A DNA stretch of 51,990 bases. It comes from a candidate division WWE3 bacterium RIFOXYB1_FULL_43_24. GTDB lineage: Bacteria > Patescibacteriota > WWE3 > UBA101185 > UBA10185. The notes below the pieces were generated by a model. It was not told the origin of the DNA. It worked only from the letters and a program-made list of their open reading frames with translations, and searched no databases. The DNA lies in NCBI GenBank assembly GCA_001773135.1, contig MEVX01000008.1, positions 91,992-143,981 on the forward strand. The letters run 5' to 3'. This document shows, piece after piece, positions 5,240 to 13,854 of this stretch. Position 1 is the stretch's first letter, and the number at the start of each line of letters is the position of its first letter. A program made the position numbers and the translations under genes.

Positions 5240-6748
5240 CTAATTTTGTGTGGGAGCTATTTTCCAGATCCTAGTAATAGCCCTATTTATTTTCTGATAA
5301 GAATAGATAAAATATCCCAGGATTTCCGAGTAGTATAAGTATCCTTGCCCCGCCTTAATTTTTGAGAGAACTTTCAAAGGTACAAGCACTATGTTCGGGA
5401 TTTGAAATTTCACATCGTAAAATTTTATCTTCATCAGCCAATCAATAATGCCTTTTGGTAAAAGAGAGATAAGTACGAACAGAAGCATAAACGCCGAAGT
5501 ATTTATTTGGGCGTTTTTGTTGTCGTACCAAGGTACAAGATTAAGTTTGCTCAAATCGTGTTGTCCTGTGTTTATAGCGGGAACATCCGCTTCAGAAATT
5601 GAACCGTGCTTAATTGCTGTTTGTATGATGTCTGTTCCGGGAAGATACATTAAACCCCAGAAATTAATAATTGTAGGACGGCACTCATTATATAAATTGA
5701 CGGCTTCTATCAAATGTTCTTTAGTTTCAGCCGGTAGGTTGAAGATGTGGTCGAAAGAAAATTGAAGGCTGTATTTCCTGCATAATTCTGAAACCTTTAA
5801 AATTTGTTCATTGGTTTCGTGACGGTTAAGAAAAGTTTTTCTATAATTTTCGTTTGCGGATTGAACGCCGAGCTTAAACCAAGTGCATCCGCCCTCTTTA
5901 AGAATTTTTACTGTTTCTTCGTTTACAAGTCTCGGGTGGAAGAAACAAGCGAAAGGAACATTTACCTTTTCTTTATACAAATCCATAAGTTTGCGGAGTC
6001 TTTCTATGTCTATTGCCAGTACATCGTCAGCAAACTCTACACGCGGATAGTGGTATTTTGCTAAATTCATTTCCAGCTCTCCGATTACGTTTTCAGGACT
6101 ACGGTGTCTGAATCTTTTTTGTCCGAGGTATAGTTTTTGGTAAACGTTGTTTGAGCAGTATGTACATGCGAAAGGACAACCGCGGCTTCCTACGGCTGTA
6201 TAGGCCATATTTCTTTTAATTGGGTCAAGCGGAGAGTTGTAAAAAAGATCTTTGTCGGGGTATGGCAGAGCGTCTAAATCGGTTTCTAAAGGCGCGGTAG
6301 GATTTTTAACTATCCCGCCGTCTTTTCTATACCATAATGACCTCGTTTTTGTTATATCTCCGGCTTCGTGATTTTGTGCAAATTCTATGATAGTTTTGTC
6401 GGCTTCCCCAAGAAGTATCCCGTCAATAGCTTTCTCTTCCATTACCACGTCGGGCACAGAGTTAACATGAACACCTCCGAACAAAATGAAAAGCTCTGGA
6501 TAATTTTCTTTGATTAGTTTTGCTTTGGCCAAAGACCACGGGAATTGAAAAGAGAATGGTGAAAAACATGCAAAGTCAGGTTTATATTTTTCAATTTTCT
6601 TTATGATAGCTTGGTTTTCTGCTTGTAGGTTGGATCCTAGTGGAAAGAACGCAAGTTCCACGGAGTGTCCTACGCTTTTCAGTGCAGCAGAGATGTACTC
6701 AACGCCTATATTTTCGTTTTCGTGTTGTACGAATAAAAACTTCAGCAC
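5240..6748 (-). CDS. B12-binding-domain radical SAM protein
   Basis: N-terminal Rossmann-like B12-binding region, then GSRGCPFACTYCSN (CxxxCxxC). GTG start. Confidence 0.75.
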   Translation of the reverse strand: MLKFLFVQHENENIGVEYISAALKSVGHSVELAFFPLGSNLQAENQAIIKKIEKYKPDFACFSPFSFQFPWSLAKAKLIKENYPELFILFGGVHVNSVPDVVMEEKAIDGILLGEADKTIIEFAQNHEAGDITKTRSLWYRKDGGIVKNPTAPLETDLDALPYPDKDLFYNSPLDPIKRNMAYTAVGSRGCPFACTYCSNNVYQKLYLGQKRFRHRSPENVIGELEMNLAKYHYPRVEFADDVLAIDIERLRKLMDLYKEKVNVPFACFFHPRLVNEETVKILKEGGCTWFKLGVQSANENYRKTFLNRHETNEQILKVSELCRKYSLQFSFDHIFNLPAETKEHLIEAVNLYNECRPTIINFWGLMYLPGTDIIQTAIKHGSISEADVPAINTGQHDLSKLNLVPWYDNKNAQINTSAFMLLFVLISLLPKGIIDWLMKIKFYDVKFQIPNIVLVPLKVLSKIKAGQGYLYYSEILGYFIYSYQKINRAITRIWKIAPTQN

Positions 6749-8659: not shown

Positions 8660-8737
8660 GGTGGCTGTAGCTCAGTTGGTTAGAGCGCTGCTCTGTGGAA
8701 GCGGAGGTCGTGGGTTCGAGCCCCATCAGCCACCCCA
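8660..8737 (+). tRNA. tRNA-His (anticodon GTG) with encoded G-1
   Basis: G(-1) then GTGGCTG acceptor, CTGCT-CTGTGGA-AGCGG anticodon arm, GTGGGTTCGAGCCCCAT T-arm, CAGCCAC, discriminator C, CCA. Confidence 0.9.
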
Positions 8738-8937: not shown

Positions 8938-10239
8938 ATGTACACACGATTAAGTGCACCATTGGATGTGCAATGGGAGCTTACGCCTTGGTGCACATAT
9001 AACTGTGTGCACTGTTACAACTATTGGCGTAGGGACGAACGACCAATGCGTGTTCTTACAGAAGATCAGCTGGTAGTACGTAGAAAGACTGCCAAAGAGC
9101 TTCTTGAGAACAAGGTTTTTCATGTGACACTGACTGGAGGTGAGCCGCTTGGCGTAATTGAGCAGGTAATGCCTGAACTTCGCCAACTCGCATCAGCAGG
9201 TATACAAATGAGCATCAACACTAACCTAGCCCTGATGACCACGGAGATGGGTAAATTGTTGAAAGAGTTGGGTATTCGTTCAATTCTTACATCCTTGATG
9301 TCAGCAGACGAAATACTCAACGATGAGATCGCTCAACAAAGAGGTGCCTTTAGGCGGACTATAGAGGGTATCAAGGTAGCGGTATCAATGGGACTCCGAG
9401 TGTCGGTGAATATGGTTGTGTCTCAGAAAAACTTTGACACCATCTACGATACTGGAAAACTTGCATACTCACTTGGTGCCAAAGCATTCTGTGCAACCAA
9501 GGTGTCAAAACCCTCAAACTGCGAAGACTTCACAGGCTTTCCTCTTAGCAGAGAGCAGCTTGGGAGTATGTTCCATGAGCTTATCCGGATAAGGAAAGCA
9601 TTTGGAATTGAAGTCGCCTCACTGGAGCACTATCCTGCTTGTGTATTCCCAAATACCGAAACAAGAACAATGTTTGGTAATAGAAATTGTTCGGCCGCGA
9701 AAACAAGCTGTACGATAGGGTTTGATGGGAACATACGGCCATGCTCGCACGCTCCTATGTCCTACGGTAATGTAGCAGAACAAGGATTAAGCGTTGCCTG
9801 GATAGGTATGGACGCATGGCGAGATGATAGCCTTGTACCATCTGTATGTAAGCTTACGTGCGGTGAGTATCCTGGCAAGTGCGGTGGCGGTTGCAGAATT
9901 GAGTCTCTTAATGTTCACCAGGGTGTAGGTGGCAGCGACCCTTATAGCCTTGAGGCAGCGCCAGCAGCAAAGCGAGCAGTAGCAAAGCTCAAGCTCTTAG
10001 ATCCCGCCGTGATAGTACAACTACAACCAAAGGTACGATTTCGTAAAGAGAATTTTGGGTTCATAGCCTACAGAAGTTCAACCAACTGGGTAGCTATGGA
10101 TTCAACGCTTTATGGTATAGTCGTACCGTCCAAACCAGTATCGGTCACTGATGTGGCGACCGCATATCAATCTTCTGAAGATGATGCCCTGGAAACGCTG
10201 AGCATTTTGTCAGCAAAAGGCATTGTCCAAATAATCTGA
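8938..10239 (+). CDS. Radical SAM / SPASM-domain peptide maturase with a C-terminal PqqD-like (RRE-like) tail
   Basis: CTYNCVHC (CxxxCxxC) at residues 19-26. Auxiliary-cluster Cys motifs CSAAKTSC..RPC and CKLTCGEYPGKCGGGC. The ~90-aa tail (KVRFRKENFGFIAY...) resembles PqqD family. RBS GGAGG. Confidence 0.8.
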   Translation: MYTRLSAPLDVQWELTPWCTYNCVHCYNYWRRDERPMRVLTEDQLVVRRKTAKELLENKVFHVTLTGGEPLGVIEQVMPELRQLASAGIQMSINTNLALMTTEMGKLLKELGIRSILTSLMSADEILNDEIAQQRGAFRRTIEGIKVAVSMGLRVSVNMVVSQKNFDTIYDTGKLAYSLGAKAFCATKVSKPSNCEDFTGFPLSREQLGSMFHELIRIRKAFGIEVASLEHYPACVFPNTETRTMFGNRNCSAAKTSCTIGFDGNIRPCSHAPMSYGNVAEQGLSVAWIGMDAWRDDSLVPSVCKLTCGEYPGKCGGGCRIESLNVHQGVGGSDPYSLEAAPAAKRAVAKLKLLDPAVIVQLQPKVRFRKENFGFIAYRSSTNWVAMDSTLYGIVVPSKPVSVTDVATAYQSSEDDALETLSILSAKGIVQII

Positions 10240-10260
10240 AAGCGAAAGGAGGTGAGAGTA

Positions 10261-10410
10261 ATGGCCGTTGGTATTCTGAGGTTGCAAACCACGCGTGTCT
10301 GCGAAGACAACTGTGATGGCGAAGACATTGATGGCGTTCCGTGCGTTGATGTTGAAGACCCGCCTTGCTACGAAATGTGTCAAGACAGCGATGATGGTCC
10401 GAACGATTAA
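10261..10410 (+). CDS. 49-aa Cys/Asp-rich putative RiPP precursor peptide A (not in the ORF track)
   Basis: ATG lies 7 nt after AAGGAGGTGA and 21 nt after the rSAM stop. Hand translation: MAVGILRLQTTRVCEDNCDGEDIDGVPCVDVEDPPCYEMCQDSDDGPND (5 Cys, 14 Asp/Glu). A terminator follows. Confidence 0.7.
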   Translation: MAVGILRLQTTRVCEDNCDGEDIDGVPCVDVEDPPCYEMCQDSDDGPND

Positions 10411-10465
10411 CCGCCTCGCCCGCGCCTACTCCTAACCACAGTTTGGGTTGCGCAACCTAACCTGT

Positions 10466-10516
10466 CCCTCTGATAGTTTGTTTACAAAACTAGCTGTCAG
10501 AGGGATACTTTTTTTA
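10466..10516 (+). terminator. Rho-independent terminator after peptide A
   Basis: CCCTCTGA ... TCAGAGGG stem with inner TAGTTT/AAACTA pairing, then a T-run. Confidence 0.6.
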
Positions 10517-10517
10517 T

Positions 10518-11150
10518 ATGATATTTAAGATACAGACATTTGAAGACCCTATTTTAGAAAAACTGTATAGCCAAGCATTAGAAGAGTTAAAAGAATTTTT
10601 CCAATTTAGATGGGAAAAAAACACTCCTAAGCTAATAGTTATTGAAGATAGAGATACTATAAACGCTGTATATGGGAAACAAACAGAGAGCTGGATGGTT
10701 GCATGGGCTGAAGATACAAGGAACATCTTTATACTTAGCAGAGAAAATTACGAAAAATATAGTTCGCACAAGTATTCAGAAGATGAATTTTACAAACTAA
10801 TAAAACACGAACTCTCCCATATGTTTTACAAATTGATTACTTTTACAGATAAACCAAGATGGTTGAATGAGGGAATAAGTACATACATATCAGGTCAATT
10901 AGATAACACCAAACCAATAGAGGAATTTAAGGTGTTTCTGAACTACTTTGATAAAACAGATGCTGAACTGTACAAAGAATCGGGGTATCTTGTCAAATTA
11001 TTGTTAGATAAATTCGGTAAAGATAAGCTATCTAAATTCACTAAATCTTTGAAGGGTGTCAAAGATCCAGAAACAACTGCAAAAGTATTTCAGGAAGCTT
11101 TTGGCTTAAATCTATCATACGAAAGTATAAACTACCTGCTTACAAAATAA
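10518..11150 (+). CDS. HExxH zinc metallopeptidase (peptidase MA / gluzincin-like), paralog 1
   Basis: HELSHMFY ... WLNEGISTYISGQ (HExxH plus a downstream EG). Confidence 0.6.
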   Translation: MIFKIQTFEDPILEKLYSQALEELKEFFQFRWEKNTPKLIVIEDRDTINAVYGKQTESWMVAWAEDTRNIFILSRENYEKYSSHKYSEDEFYKLIKHELSHMFYKLITFTDKPRWLNEGISTYISGQLDNTKPIEEFKVFLNYFDKTDAELYKESGYLVKLLLDKFGKDKLSKFTKSLKGVKDPETTAKVFQEAFGLNLSYESINYLLTK

Positions 11151-11374: not shown

Positions 11375-12007
11375 ATGACTTTACTTATGAGTAAAATTTT
11401 TAGAATAAAAATAAACGAACAAAAAGAATTAGAATCTGTATACGCTCAATCACTAGACAAATTAAATAACTTTTTTGATATTAGATGGGAACAGAACAAA
11501 CCAAAAGTTTATATAGTAAGTGACAGAGAAACTGCTGAATCTTTGAGGGGTAAACAAACTCCAGATTGGATTGTCGGCTGGAACGGGGACGGGGGGGCAT
11601 TTGTTTTGGATAAAGATATATTTTTGAACACAAAAAATACTAATCGAGACAATGACGATTACAAAATGCTAATAATGCACGAGTTAGCGCATTTGTACTT
11701 CAAAATCGTAACAGGTGGTAAAACACAACCTAATTGGTTGTGGGAAGGAACATCAATACTTGCATCAGGCCAGGCCGAAAAGTGGAATAAACCAGCAGAG
11801 TTTAGAAGCTTTCTGGACAACAAAGACGTTTATTCAGAGGCAGGACATGCTCTACTACTATTGACGCGACAGTTTGGCAAGGAAAAGTTCATACAAATGC
11901 TCAAAAACTACAAAACTTACGATGGAGATTTTTCTGGTCTATTTAAAAATACTTACGATATGGAACTAACATATGCTACGTTTGAAGGTTTAATAAAACA
12001 TCAGTAA
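11375..12007 (+). CDS. HExxH zinc metallopeptidase (peptidase MA / gluzincin-like), paralog 2
   Basis: HELAHLYF ... WLWEGTSILASGQ. Alignable by eye with 10518-11150 over the full length. The true start may be the second Met (11387, MSKIFRIK). Confidence 0.6.
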   Translation: MTLLMSKIFRIKINEQKELESVYAQSLDKLNNFFDIRWEQNKPKVYIVSDRETAESLRGKQTPDWIVGWNGDGGAFVLDKDIFLNTKNTNRDNDDYKMLIMHELAHLYFKIVTGGKTQPNWLWEGTSILASGQAEKWNKPAEFRSFLDNKDVYSEAGHALLLLTRQFGKEKFIQMLKNYKTYDGDFSGLFKNTYDMELTYATFEGLIKHQ

Positions 12008-12072
12008 TATACGGGGTATAGTGATTAGTAAATAATCAGCATACCCCTGTTTCTACCGTCACTGACTTTTTA

Positions 12073-12198
12073 CTAAGAAAACTGAGGACAGTCTCCAGGA
12101 GGTTGGCAATCACAATCGCAATCGCTGGTTGCGTCTGAATCGTGAGAGCAATTATCAGACCCAGTTACGTGTATGCCCAAATCTTCAAGATTAACCAT
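12073..12198 (-). CDS. 41-aa Cys/Asp-rich putative RiPP precursor peptide B (not in the ORF track)
   Basis: On the minus strand, GAAAGGAGAATTGAC precedes the ATG. Hand translation: MVNLEDLGIHVTGSDNCSHDSDATSDCDCDCQPPGDCPQFS. The leader motif LGIHV..S is shared with peptide C. Confidence 0.65.
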   Translation of the reverse strand: MVNLEDLGIHVTGSDNCSHDSDATSDCDCDCQPPGDCPQFS

Positions 12199-12325
12199 GT
12201 CAATTCTCCTTTCGTAGAATGCAGATTTATTCACAGTATTATACTACAAAAATTGAGATTACTAATAAAATATGCTATAACTACGCAATAATCCAAAATA
12301 TCTTGTAAAAAAAGGAGAGATAGCT

Positions 12326-13678
12326 ATGGCAGACTTGACTTATCAGGGGCTGTTATTGGACAAGGCAGGTCACACTAAGTTAAACCTTTCAAATGGCGAA
12401 GCTGTGATCTATAGTCCTTACGGCTCCGGCAAAGCGTTTGTTCTATCAGGTGTTGCATTAAAGGTGTACAAGCTTCTTGAAAGCGGGTTAACTGTTGAGG
12501 AAATAATCAATACAGCGCAATCGCCGGAATGGGAAGAAACCGTGCAGGCAGTGATTGCGTACTTCACAGATCGGGGACTTTTTGCAGACAAGAGAAAAAC
12601 GAAAACTTTCTCTGCAGCCAAAAAGCCGAAGTCAATTGCACTTTGGATCCATGTTACGGATACCTGTAATCTGCGTTGCGATTATTGCTACGTTCACAAG
12701 GGTAAACGGCGCTTATCCAAAGAAGCCTGTGATGTTATTGTCAGCGCATTAAAGGCGGATACGGAAACCTTTCAGATAAAGGAGGTTGAGCTGAAGTTTG
12801 CAGGAGGCGAACCGCTCGTTGATATAGAGATTGTTTCCTATTTCATGGACCAAGCAAGAGCGGCGTTGCTACCACTTGGTGTAAAAATCCATTTGGCGAT
12901 AATCACCAACGGTACCTTAGTGACTGATGAAAAAGCGAAGTTTCTCAAGAACGAAGCGTTCTCGGTCATGGTATCCCTGGACGGACTTGGAGATTTCAAC
13001 AACGCCAGGAAATATGCAGATGGACGAACTAGTGTGCATCAGGTGCTGGAAGGTATTGAATGCCTGCTTAACGCTGGTGTTAGGCCTACAATACTCACAA
13101 CGGTATCGGATACGAATGTTGAGGGTTTGTGGGATCTAATGATCTATGTGAGAGAGAAGGGTCTAACGCTAAGCCTAAGCCCATCCAGAGACTACGAGCA
13201 AGAATTGGGTTTGAAGATGAATGTAGAGCATATTTCCAATGAAATGGTGGTGTTTCTACACAAAGTATGTCTTTTACCCGATAGCGACCTGCCGCGACTG
13301 AGTTTCAATGGAATTCAATTTACCGGCGGTAGAACTCATATCTGTGGGGGTGGCTCAAATTACTTTGCAGTGGATCCCGATGCAGGCGTCTGCTTTTGTC
13401 AGATGACTGTAGATAAGCCAATGGGTTTGGTCACAGACAAAGACAGCATATTGAGTTTCGCCACTAGTCAAGATACGATCCTGGAAGGAGGTGAGTGCTT
13501 AACCTGTATTTGGAAGAATGTCTGTTGTGGAGGATGTGCAGTTTTAGCGATGAACGCAGGTACTTTTGGGAAACCATCAGTAATGTGCGATTTAATGAAA
13601 CGCATCCTACCGTCAATCCTTCTATATGAAGGCCGAAAGATCCGCAGATTGAAAGAGAGGAAAACATGCCTACCTTGA
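12326..13678 (+). CDS. Radical SAM / SPASM-domain peptide maturase with an N-terminal PqqD-like (RRE-like) domain
   Basis: CNLRCDYC (CxxxCxxC). C-terminal Cys clusters CGGGSNYF..CFC and CLTCIWKNVCCGGC. The ~100-aa N-terminal extension (VIYSPYGSGKAFVLSGVALKVYKLLESGLTVEEII) resembles PqqD family. RBS AAGGAGAG. Confidence 0.8.
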   Translation: MADLTYQGLLLDKAGHTKLNLSNGEAVIYSPYGSGKAFVLSGVALKVYKLLESGLTVEEIINTAQSPEWEETVQAVIAYFTDRGLFADKRKTKTFSAAKKPKSIALWIHVTDTCNLRCDYCYVHKGKRRLSKEACDVIVSALKADTETFQIKEVELKFAGGEPLVDIEIVSYFMDQARAALLPLGVKIHLAIITNGTLVTDEKAKFLKNEAFSVMVSLDGLGDFNNARKYADGRTSVHQVLEGIECLLNAGVRPTILTTVSDTNVEGLWDLMIYVREKGLTLSLSPSRDYEQELGLKMNVEHISNEMVVFLHKVCLLPDSDLPRLSFNGIQFTGGRTHICGGGSNYFAVDPDAGVCFCQMTVDKPMGLVTDKDSILSFATSQDTILEGGECLTCIWKNVCCGGCAVLAMNAGTFGKPSVMCDLMKRILPSILLYEGRKIRRLKERKTCLP

Positions 13679-13854
13679 GCGCTCTTGGTATTCATGTAGC
13701 AGATTCTCAAAGCCGAGCTGATTGCGACTGCGAGACAGACTGCGCCTCACAATGTAGCCAACAGTGTGACCGAGACTGTGACTGCGAATGTGGAGGCGAC
13801 TGCTACGATTGTGATTGTGAATGCCAGTGCCAATGCTCTGATTGCAGGAACTAA
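13666..13854 (+). CDS. 62-aa putative RiPP precursor peptide C with 15 Cys
   Basis: ATG lies 5 nt after GAGAGG and overlaps the rSAM-2 stop by 13 nt. Sequence: MPTLSALGIHVADSQSRADCDCETDCASQCSQQCDRDCDCECGGDCYDCDCECQCQCSDCRN. Confidence 0.75.
   Translation: MPTLSALGIHVADSQSRADCDCETDCASQCSQQCDRDCDCECGGDCYDCDCECQCQCSDCRN

Follow-up and report, generated by a model that had tools for sequence, protein, structure and literature searches.

A divergently encoded Cys/Asp-rich peptide as a candidate lineage-restricted second precursor of a radical SAM/SPASM cassette in a WWE3 bacterium

On the minus strand between the genes for a candidate leader peptidase and a radical SAM/SPASM peptide maturase (rSAM-2), a candidate division WWE3 bacterium carries a 41-codon open reading frame, here termed pepB. 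On balance, we take it for a genuine, lineage-restricted second precursor of the rSAM-2 cassette, with its own divergent promoter and a strong Shine-Dalgarno (SD) sequence, in a two-cassette RiPP locus. It is a genuine accessory paralog of the pepC-type precursors, a previously undescribed family seen in WWE3 and related uncultured Patescibacteria, and is an optional extra rather than part of the core of the pathway; we lean toward its being functional in this strain. CPR bacteria (Patescibacteria) have tiny genomes and few recognized natural-product pathways, and this locus brings two radical SAM/SPASM cassettes together with three precursors rich in Cys and Asp. Its features, numbered from the first nucleotide of the window (the whole stretch of 51,990 nucleotides that was analyzed), are:

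8938-11150, plus strand: cassette 1, with rSAM-1 (8938-10239), pepA (10261-10410) and the HExxH peptidase-1 (10518-11150)
11375-12007, plus strand: peptidase-2, a 210-residue HExxH peptidase, MA-like with weak Pfam Peptidase_MA_2/M1 matches, candidate leader peptidase
12013-12047, no strand assigned: hairpin from RNA folding, candidate bidirectional terminator where pepB and peptidase-2 converge
12073-12198, minus strand: pepB, a 41-codon precursor-peptide gene, recognized from its frame and translation, the leader profile, BLASTP to pepC and a positional homolog in locus L002
12206-12213, minus strand: SD of pepB, GAAAGGAG, with a 7-nt spacer to the ATG; the same octamer precedes the L002 homolog
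12238-12248, minus strand: candidate pepB promoter, the 11-nt block TGTAGTATAAT, with a perfect -10 TATAAT at 12243-12238 and without a good -35
12273-12281, plus strand: extended -10-like element TGCTATAAC of the rSAM-2/pepC operon, from alignment A1
12326-13678, plus strand: rSAM-2, with an N-terminal RRE at about residues 14-85 (nucleotides 12365-12580)
13666-13854, plus strand: pepC, a conserved 62-residue precursor with leader MPTLSALGIHVADS and a 13-nt overlap with the rSAM-2 stop

Cassette 2 is made up of peptidase-2, pepB, rSAM-2 and pepC, and both cassettes lie downstream of tRNA-His (8661-8737). The minus-strand frame had been proposed from the DNA letters alone, and its sequence and coordinates are correct: it runs from an ATG at 12198-12196 to a TAG at 12075-12073 and specifies the 41-residue product MVNLEDLGIHVTGSDNCSHDSDATSDCDCDCQPPGDCPQFS. 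The leader comprises approximately residues 1-14 (MVNLEDLGIHVTGS) and is followed by a Cys- and acid-rich core of 27 residues with five cysteines and eight aspartates, in which four of the five cysteines have an aspartate 0-4 residues downstream. The DCDCDC motif noted earlier in the core occupies residues 26-31; it recurs, together with a PGDC motif, in loci L002, L014, L047 and L049. A 41-codon open frame taken alone is weak evidence for a gene. The ribosome-binding site called strong at the outset is indeed so, with GAAAGGAG at 12213-12206 ending 7 nt before the ATG, and such sites are rare: an AGGAG lies 5-12 nt upstream of just 13 of the window's 494 ATG-initiated frames that span 30 codons or more, among them rSAM-2, pepA (ATG at 10261) and pepB.

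The intergenic region separating pepB from rSAM-2 (12199-12325) measures 127 bp, the length first given for it. The minus-strand TATAAT reported within it exists as a perfect match, but at 12238-12243, 2 nt away from the earlier placement at 12236-12241. A sigma-70 scan that requires a -35 element does not call the pepB promoter, and a terminator consensus scan does not call the 12013-12047 hairpin; in both scans the number of sites is no higher than expected from shuffled sequence. The hairpin itself folds with a dG of -23.3 kcal/mol (z -3.4 against shuffles) and is devoid of a classical U-tract. A longer, 53-residue form initiating at a GTG (12234) was rejected: its start would fall 4 nt past the -10 box, it lacks an SD, and it departs from the M-x-x-L register seen in the relatives, so the 41-residue form is taken as the gene. 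Readings of the pepB region as a noncoding RNA or a mobile element were likewise set aside, there being no Rfam matches and no flanking repeats.

The case for pepB is carried by its leader. Orthologs of rSAM-2, ranging from 91% down to 35% identity, were gathered from GTDB genomes, JGI metagenomes and assemblies, and their flanks were read in six frames. In the cluster lineages whose contig reaches that far, a small Cys/acid-rich frame lies downstream of rSAM-2, and the N-termini of these precursors share the consensus M-x-x-L-x-x-[LI]-G-[IV]-[HY]-[VI]-x-G-S. In the alignment of 13 family leaders (A2), M1, L4 and G8 are invariant and I9 nearly so; pepB keeps all four positions in exact register from its initiating methionine. 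The alignment of leaders across homologous clusters, which the original prediction had proposed as a check, places pepB closer to the family consensus than its comparison with the pepC of the window had implied; the G-S at leader positions 13-14 is present in pepB and missing from that pepC.

The shared leader of pepB and pepC held up in profile searches free of the core. A 16-position leader HMM was built from 12 precursors downstream of rSAM-2 orthologs, with pepB and all core residues excluded, and run against the window translated in six frames and divided into 1919 stop-to-stop segments. It recovered pepC with an E-value of 1e-8 and pepB as the second-ranked of the 1919 segments with 6.5e-5, the next segment scoring 1.3. 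A second HMM from the distant leaders only gave 6.7e-7 for pepC, 1.3e-4 for pepB and 1.5 for the best unrelated segment. Read in six frames, the window contains the string LGIHV at just two places, in pepB and in pepC, and a direct BLASTP comparison of the two with compositional adjustment yields an E-value of 3e-6. By the profile and BLASTP results, pepB is therefore homologous to the pepC-type precursors and belongs to their family, a relationship that we regard as nearly certain, and it is probably a substrate of rSAM-2. In two respects pepB departs from the family pattern: rather than lying directly downstream of the maturase on the same strand, with its start abutting or overlapping the maturase stop codon, it is situated upstream, on the opposite strand, 127 bp from the rSAM-2 start; and rather than being retained with every intact rSAM-2 ortholog, it is intact in the window only.

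None of the three precursors, pepA, pepB or pepC, matches a model in NCBIfam or Pfam. A word-indexed homolog search with pepB alone found nothing; a search with a family profile returned five called proteins, the pepC of the window not among them; and an exhaustive HMMER search of 1.84 billion representative proteins returned the same five family members. As a called gene, pepB has no record in the public collections searched, and when the peptide alignment A7 was used to scan GTDB genomes, a single precursor was recovered, the pepC of RAAC2. The family is essentially unannotated, and the comparative evidence accordingly came from the six-frame reading of loci. The pepB and pepC of this strain are both missing from the protein collections searched. 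The missing annotation of pepB says little because the pepC of the window goes uncalled too. Gene callers systematically miss such precursors, for which the leader MxxLxxLGI[HY]VxGS offers a mining signature.

Across the lineages gathered, pepB is distributed as follows:

The window's own strain: pepB intact; aquifer metagenomes contain identical contigs, at depths of 7-17x
RAAC2_WWE3_1 (L002, L009, L010, L012; rSAM-2 66% identical): positional pepB homolog broken at codon 19 by an in-frame TAA, the same in all four independent assemblies
L001/L006/L007 (rSAM-2 88% identical): pepB absent, a tRNA-Leu upstream instead
L003/L016/L017 (rSAM-2 89% identical): pepB absent, same tRNA-His locus, rSAM-2 cut to 148 residues
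L043 (rSAM-2 91% identical): pepB absent
L044/L045 and L046 (rSAM-2 73% identical): pepB absent
L008, L011 and L013 (rSAM-2 65-67% identical): pepB absent
L047/L048 and L049/L050 (rSAM-2 50-54% identical): pepB absent
L014, L015 and L051/L052 (rSAM-2 35-39% identical): pepB absent

At least nine related lineages thus lack it, among them one whose rSAM-2 is 91% identical. Absence of the frame from otherwise syntenic clusters had been named beforehand as an observation that would speak against the gene, and this is largely the pattern found, with at least nine lineages lacking pepB and a stop codon in the only other carrier. The RAAC2 homolog (L002 7720-7860, minus strand) occupies the same place, divergent from rSAM-2, starts with GTG and reads GRLSDLGIYVSKSEDRH-TAA-DSDCPADCEIPGDCDEGQHPPQS. 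It keeps the TGTAGTATAAT block, GAAAGGAG, the leader and the PGDC core motif, in a spacer that is otherwise unalignable; the TGTAGTATAAT block is identical in L002, L009 and L012, at a similar distance from the SD. The conservation of the leader, promoter and SD blocks at 66% maturase identity, amid unalignable spacer, argues that the module has been under purifying selection in the past, for much of its history. On the plus strand, the block TGCTATAACTACG is invariant in the five lineages of alignment A1. The proposal that the divergent region holds both promoters is therefore plausible, with TGTAGTATAAT and GAAAGGAG common to the L002 homolog and TGCTATAACTACG constant in those five lineages, but further, more distant lineages carry variants of TGCTATAACTACG. 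The longer block TATGCTATAACTACG (12271-12290) upstream of rSAM-2 is invariant in these five WWE3 lineages, whose rSAM-2 proteins are 65-89% identical to that of the window.

A spacer of about 100 nt between peptidase-2 and rSAM-2 is the common state in both close and distant lineages, and strains that co-occur with this one at higher abundance part from the window sequence precisely at 12271/12272, immediately before TGCTATAACTACG. The pepB module of about 250 bp, consisting of hairpin, frame, SD and promoter (approximately 12008-12255), hence behaves as an accessory insertion into this short spacer.

This distribution also bears on an alternative that we consider possible, if unlikely: that pepB is a decaying, nonfunctional paralog, a relic of precursor duplication or of recombination with a RAAC2-like cluster, with its frame open by chance. 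The absence of pepB from the at least nine related lineages, even beside a 91%-identical rSAM-2, the inserted look of the module in what is commonly a short spacer, and the TAA that breaks the only other copy all fit such decay, and so does the lack of any gene call for pepB in public collections. Set against this, the window retains an open frame, its start codon, a strong, ideally spaced SD and a perfect -10, every family-invariant leader position is kept, the leader and promoter blocks have been conserved at 66% rSAM-2 identity while the flanking DNA has become unalignable, and the failure of gene callers extends to the pepC of the window. Metatranscriptomes are uninformative on expression: six runs from the same samples or studies contained none of the indexed sequence words of the cluster, and four of these runs yielded no contig on any part of the cluster, which is uninformative rather than negative. 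We retain the reading of pepB as a lineage-restricted second precursor.

In the groundwater metagenome runs X1, X7 and X12 (region 11900-12450), pepB-less relatives of the L001 and L003 types are several-fold to about 30-fold more abundant, with depths of 8-242 against 7-17 for the pepB strain. In L003 (7267-8447; also in L016 and L017) the tRNA-His/YgjP locus retains only peptidase-2 and the 148-residue rSAM-2, without the rSAM-1 cassette, pepB and pepC; this degenerate cluster at the same locus marks the locus as a variable island. In RAAC2 the pepB homolog is followed on the same strand by a 283-residue protein of unknown family, a 37%-identical homolog of which comes after pepC in L001. 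In the lineage with 73%-identical rSAM-2 (L044 3813-4934 and 6635-7249; L046 1530-2423), rSAM-2 and pepC are flanked by a DUF6624 protein and a 204-residue unknown protein rather than by an HExxH peptidase, and the pepC cores of this lineage consist purely of CECQ ladders and carry a long acidic tail.

The maturase itself, whose closest database protein is that of WWE3 GW2011_GWA1_42_12 (99% identity), displays the motifs of the RRE-dependent radical SAM/SPASM class: the CX3CX2C triad (C114, C118, C121) and the seven SPASM cysteines (C340, C358, C391, C394, C400, C404, C421) are invariant in 29 homologs. An AF2 model built with these 29 homologs has a mean pLDDT of 89.3, and its N-terminal domain (pLDDT about 90) contains strands at residues 17-20, 26-29 and 36-40 and helices at 42-52, 57-61 and 67-82, which is the three-strand, three-helix topology of a PqqD-like RRE. 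The N-terminal RRE-like domain surmised earlier in rSAM-2 is thereby borne out. The Pfam PqqD model matches residues 31-65 weakly (E 0.009, 16.7 bits, below its cut-off of 23.4). The best sequence match in the PDB is CteB (5wgg, E 2e-20), and CteB is likewise first in a Foldseek search with the model (E 1.3e-22, TM 0.73/0.75); with 448 aligned columns the match is full-length, the RRE of CteB included. Within the RRE of rSAM-2, the strand residues vary hardly at all among orthologs, paralleling the conservation of the leader. In CteB, the CteA leader is bound as a β-strand between β3 and α3 of the RRE (PMC8326336), and by analogy the LGIHV leader would be bound by the RRE of rSAM-2.

The system would operate along the lines of the CteB/SCIFF and PapB/freyrasin ranthipeptide systems, though it falls below the curated thresholds of both. 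CteB/CteA, the SCIFF system of Clostridium thermocellum (5WGG), has the same maturase layout of N-terminal RRE, radical SAM barrel and seven-cysteine SPASM domain, acting on a small Cys-rich precursor whose short leader binds the RRE as a β-strand (PMC8326336). However, CteB is only about 20% identical to rSAM-2, pepB and pepC match no SCIFF precursor model, their LGIHV leader and cores of alternating Cys-Asp/Glu differ, and there are two precursors here, one of them divergently transcribed. The top NCBIfam match of rSAM-2 is the PapB family (NF047865; 119.2 bits, E 2e-34, below the cut-off of 340), the maturase of the Cys-Asp/Glu thioether ranthipeptide freyrasin of Paenibacillus polymyxa; the SCIFF maturase model TIGR03974 scores 92.4 bits (cut-off 425), and the curated cut-off of no NCBIfam maturase family is reached. 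For this reason, the chemistry assigned to rSAM-2 rests on analogy. Cys residues followed by Asp/Glu are likewise frequent in the core of PapA, and PapB cross-links such pairs (PMC9413430), but the six regular CX3D motifs of PapA contrast with the C-X0-4-D spacings of pepB and the CxC ladders of pepC.

The cassettes also occur apart. rSAM-1, pepA and peptidase-1 are found without rSAM-2 in WWE3 UBA1397 (90% identity), other Patescibacteria, Saccharibacteria, Uhrbacteria and more, and rSAM-2 with pepC, in some cases preceded by peptidase-2, stands alone in other WWE3 genomes. Peptidase-2 is 48-58% identical to the peptidases preceding rSAM-2 in L043 and L049 and 33% identical to peptidase-1. 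This separate occurrence in other CPR genomes supports two enzyme/substrate pairs, rSAM-1 with pepA and rSAM-2 with pepB and pepC; the original prediction had suggested as much, and with pepA outside the B/C leader profile such a pairing is likely. Its companion claim, that the leader of peptide A differs, stands insofar as pepA goes undetected by the B/C profile in the six-frame search of the window, but the difference is one of register and degree. Leaders of the pepA type (MAVGILRL, METLGIVSL, MEILGIIPM) carry a hydrophobic-G-I-hydrophobic motif common to both, nearer the N-terminus than in the B/C type, so that the two types of leader resemble each other while remaining distinguishable. 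A profile from distant A-type leaders proved too weak to detect even pepA, and for that reason the statement that pepB is not of the A type rests mainly on its positive match to the B/C profile.

Processing of pepB by rSAM-1, or by both maturases, with cassettes that cross-talk rather than being strictly paired, is a reading to which we give little credence. The motif shared with the pepA-type leaders, the position of pepB between the two cassettes and the promiscuity of PapB-like enzymes toward cores (PMC9413430) are in its favor. It is countered by the fit of the B/C leader profile to pepB and not to pepA, by the failure of the A-type profile to detect pepB or pepC (with the caveat that it misses pepA too), by the finding of pepB homologs beside rSAM-2 only, and by the many genomes in which the rSAM-1 cassette occurs alone without a B/C-type peptide. 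The shortness of the frame and the capacity of Cys/Asp-rich low-complexity cores to inflate similarity scores might invite the idea that pepB is open merely by chance within AT-rich spacer DNA, its likeness to pepC coincidental or compositional, but this idea is effectively refuted by the core-free leader profiles, which still give E-values of about 1e-4 or better in the same register from Met1, and by the L002 homolog at the same position in another lineage, and no Rfam RNA or repeat element lies in the region.

Taking pepB as a second rSAM-2 precursor, we propose that its own promoter would drive divergent transcription, for which the predicted start is near 12231, that the transcript would end at the shared hairpin (12013-12047), and that translation would proceed from the strong SD. 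By analogy with CteB, the 14-residue leader would then be held as a β-strand by the N-terminal RRE of rSAM-2, and the radical SAM/SPASM domain would introduce cross-links at the core cysteines. For PapB, cross-linking extends to Cys-Xn-Asp/Glu with n = 0-6 on a leader-tethered sequence, and little beyond the leader is required (PMC9413430); by this analogy, the most likely products would be Cys-to-Asp thioethers of the ranthipeptide type. The leader may finally be removed by the adjacent HExxH peptidase-2, a role suggested only by co-occurrence. Among the flanking genes examined, no exporter was recognized.

Multi-precursor RiPP clusters are commonplace, and hence pepB is of modest interest in that regard. 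Like the nif11/prochlorosin-type clusters, the locus combines one maturase and several precursors with a shared leader and divergent cores; it differs in that pepB is on the opposite strand, has its own candidate promoter and is confined to one or two lineages. The biological pay-off of pepB is also likely to be modest, for it is dispensable in most relatives. The system nevertheless amounts to a natural experiment on leader-RRE specificity and on substrate tolerance of the CteB/PapB-like kind, with one enzyme, a pair of markedly different cores, and strains that either carry or lack pepB. A broader and decidedly doubtful proposal is that rSAM-2, pepB and pepC represent a CPR-restricted, undescribed RiPP class, with an LGIHV leader of about 14 residues, Cys-Asp/Glu ladder cores and a maturase outside the curated families, whose product repertoire would be diversified by gain and loss of self-contained promoter-SD-precursor-terminator modules such as pepB. 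In a still more speculative version of this proposal, the 18-residue leader-only peptide left by the TAA of RAAC2_WWE3_1 might still be made and titrate the RRE.

Several further observations concern cassette 1 and its surroundings. rSAM-1 is without an N-terminal extension and has instead a conserved C-terminal extension of about 95 residues (residues 340-433, window 9955-10236). Comparison of this region with the rSAM-2 RRE by hhalign gives a probability of 2.5%, a PDB profile search gives weak winged-helix matches (E >= 0.02), and single-sequence AF2 yields a β-β-β-α-α arrangement at a low-confidence pLDDT of 49; the extension may be an RRE-like domain. A 19-bp inverted repeat with a 3-nt loop (10465-10505), about 55 nt past the pepA stop, forms a candidate attenuator or stabilizer hairpin before the peptidase gene. 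Approximately 2 kb upstream of the cluster, past tRNA-Glu and a solute-binding protein, the minus strand encodes a B12-binding radical SAM protein of 502 residues (5240-6748), the top matches of which, all below cut-off, are HpnJ and RiPP C-methyltransferase families.
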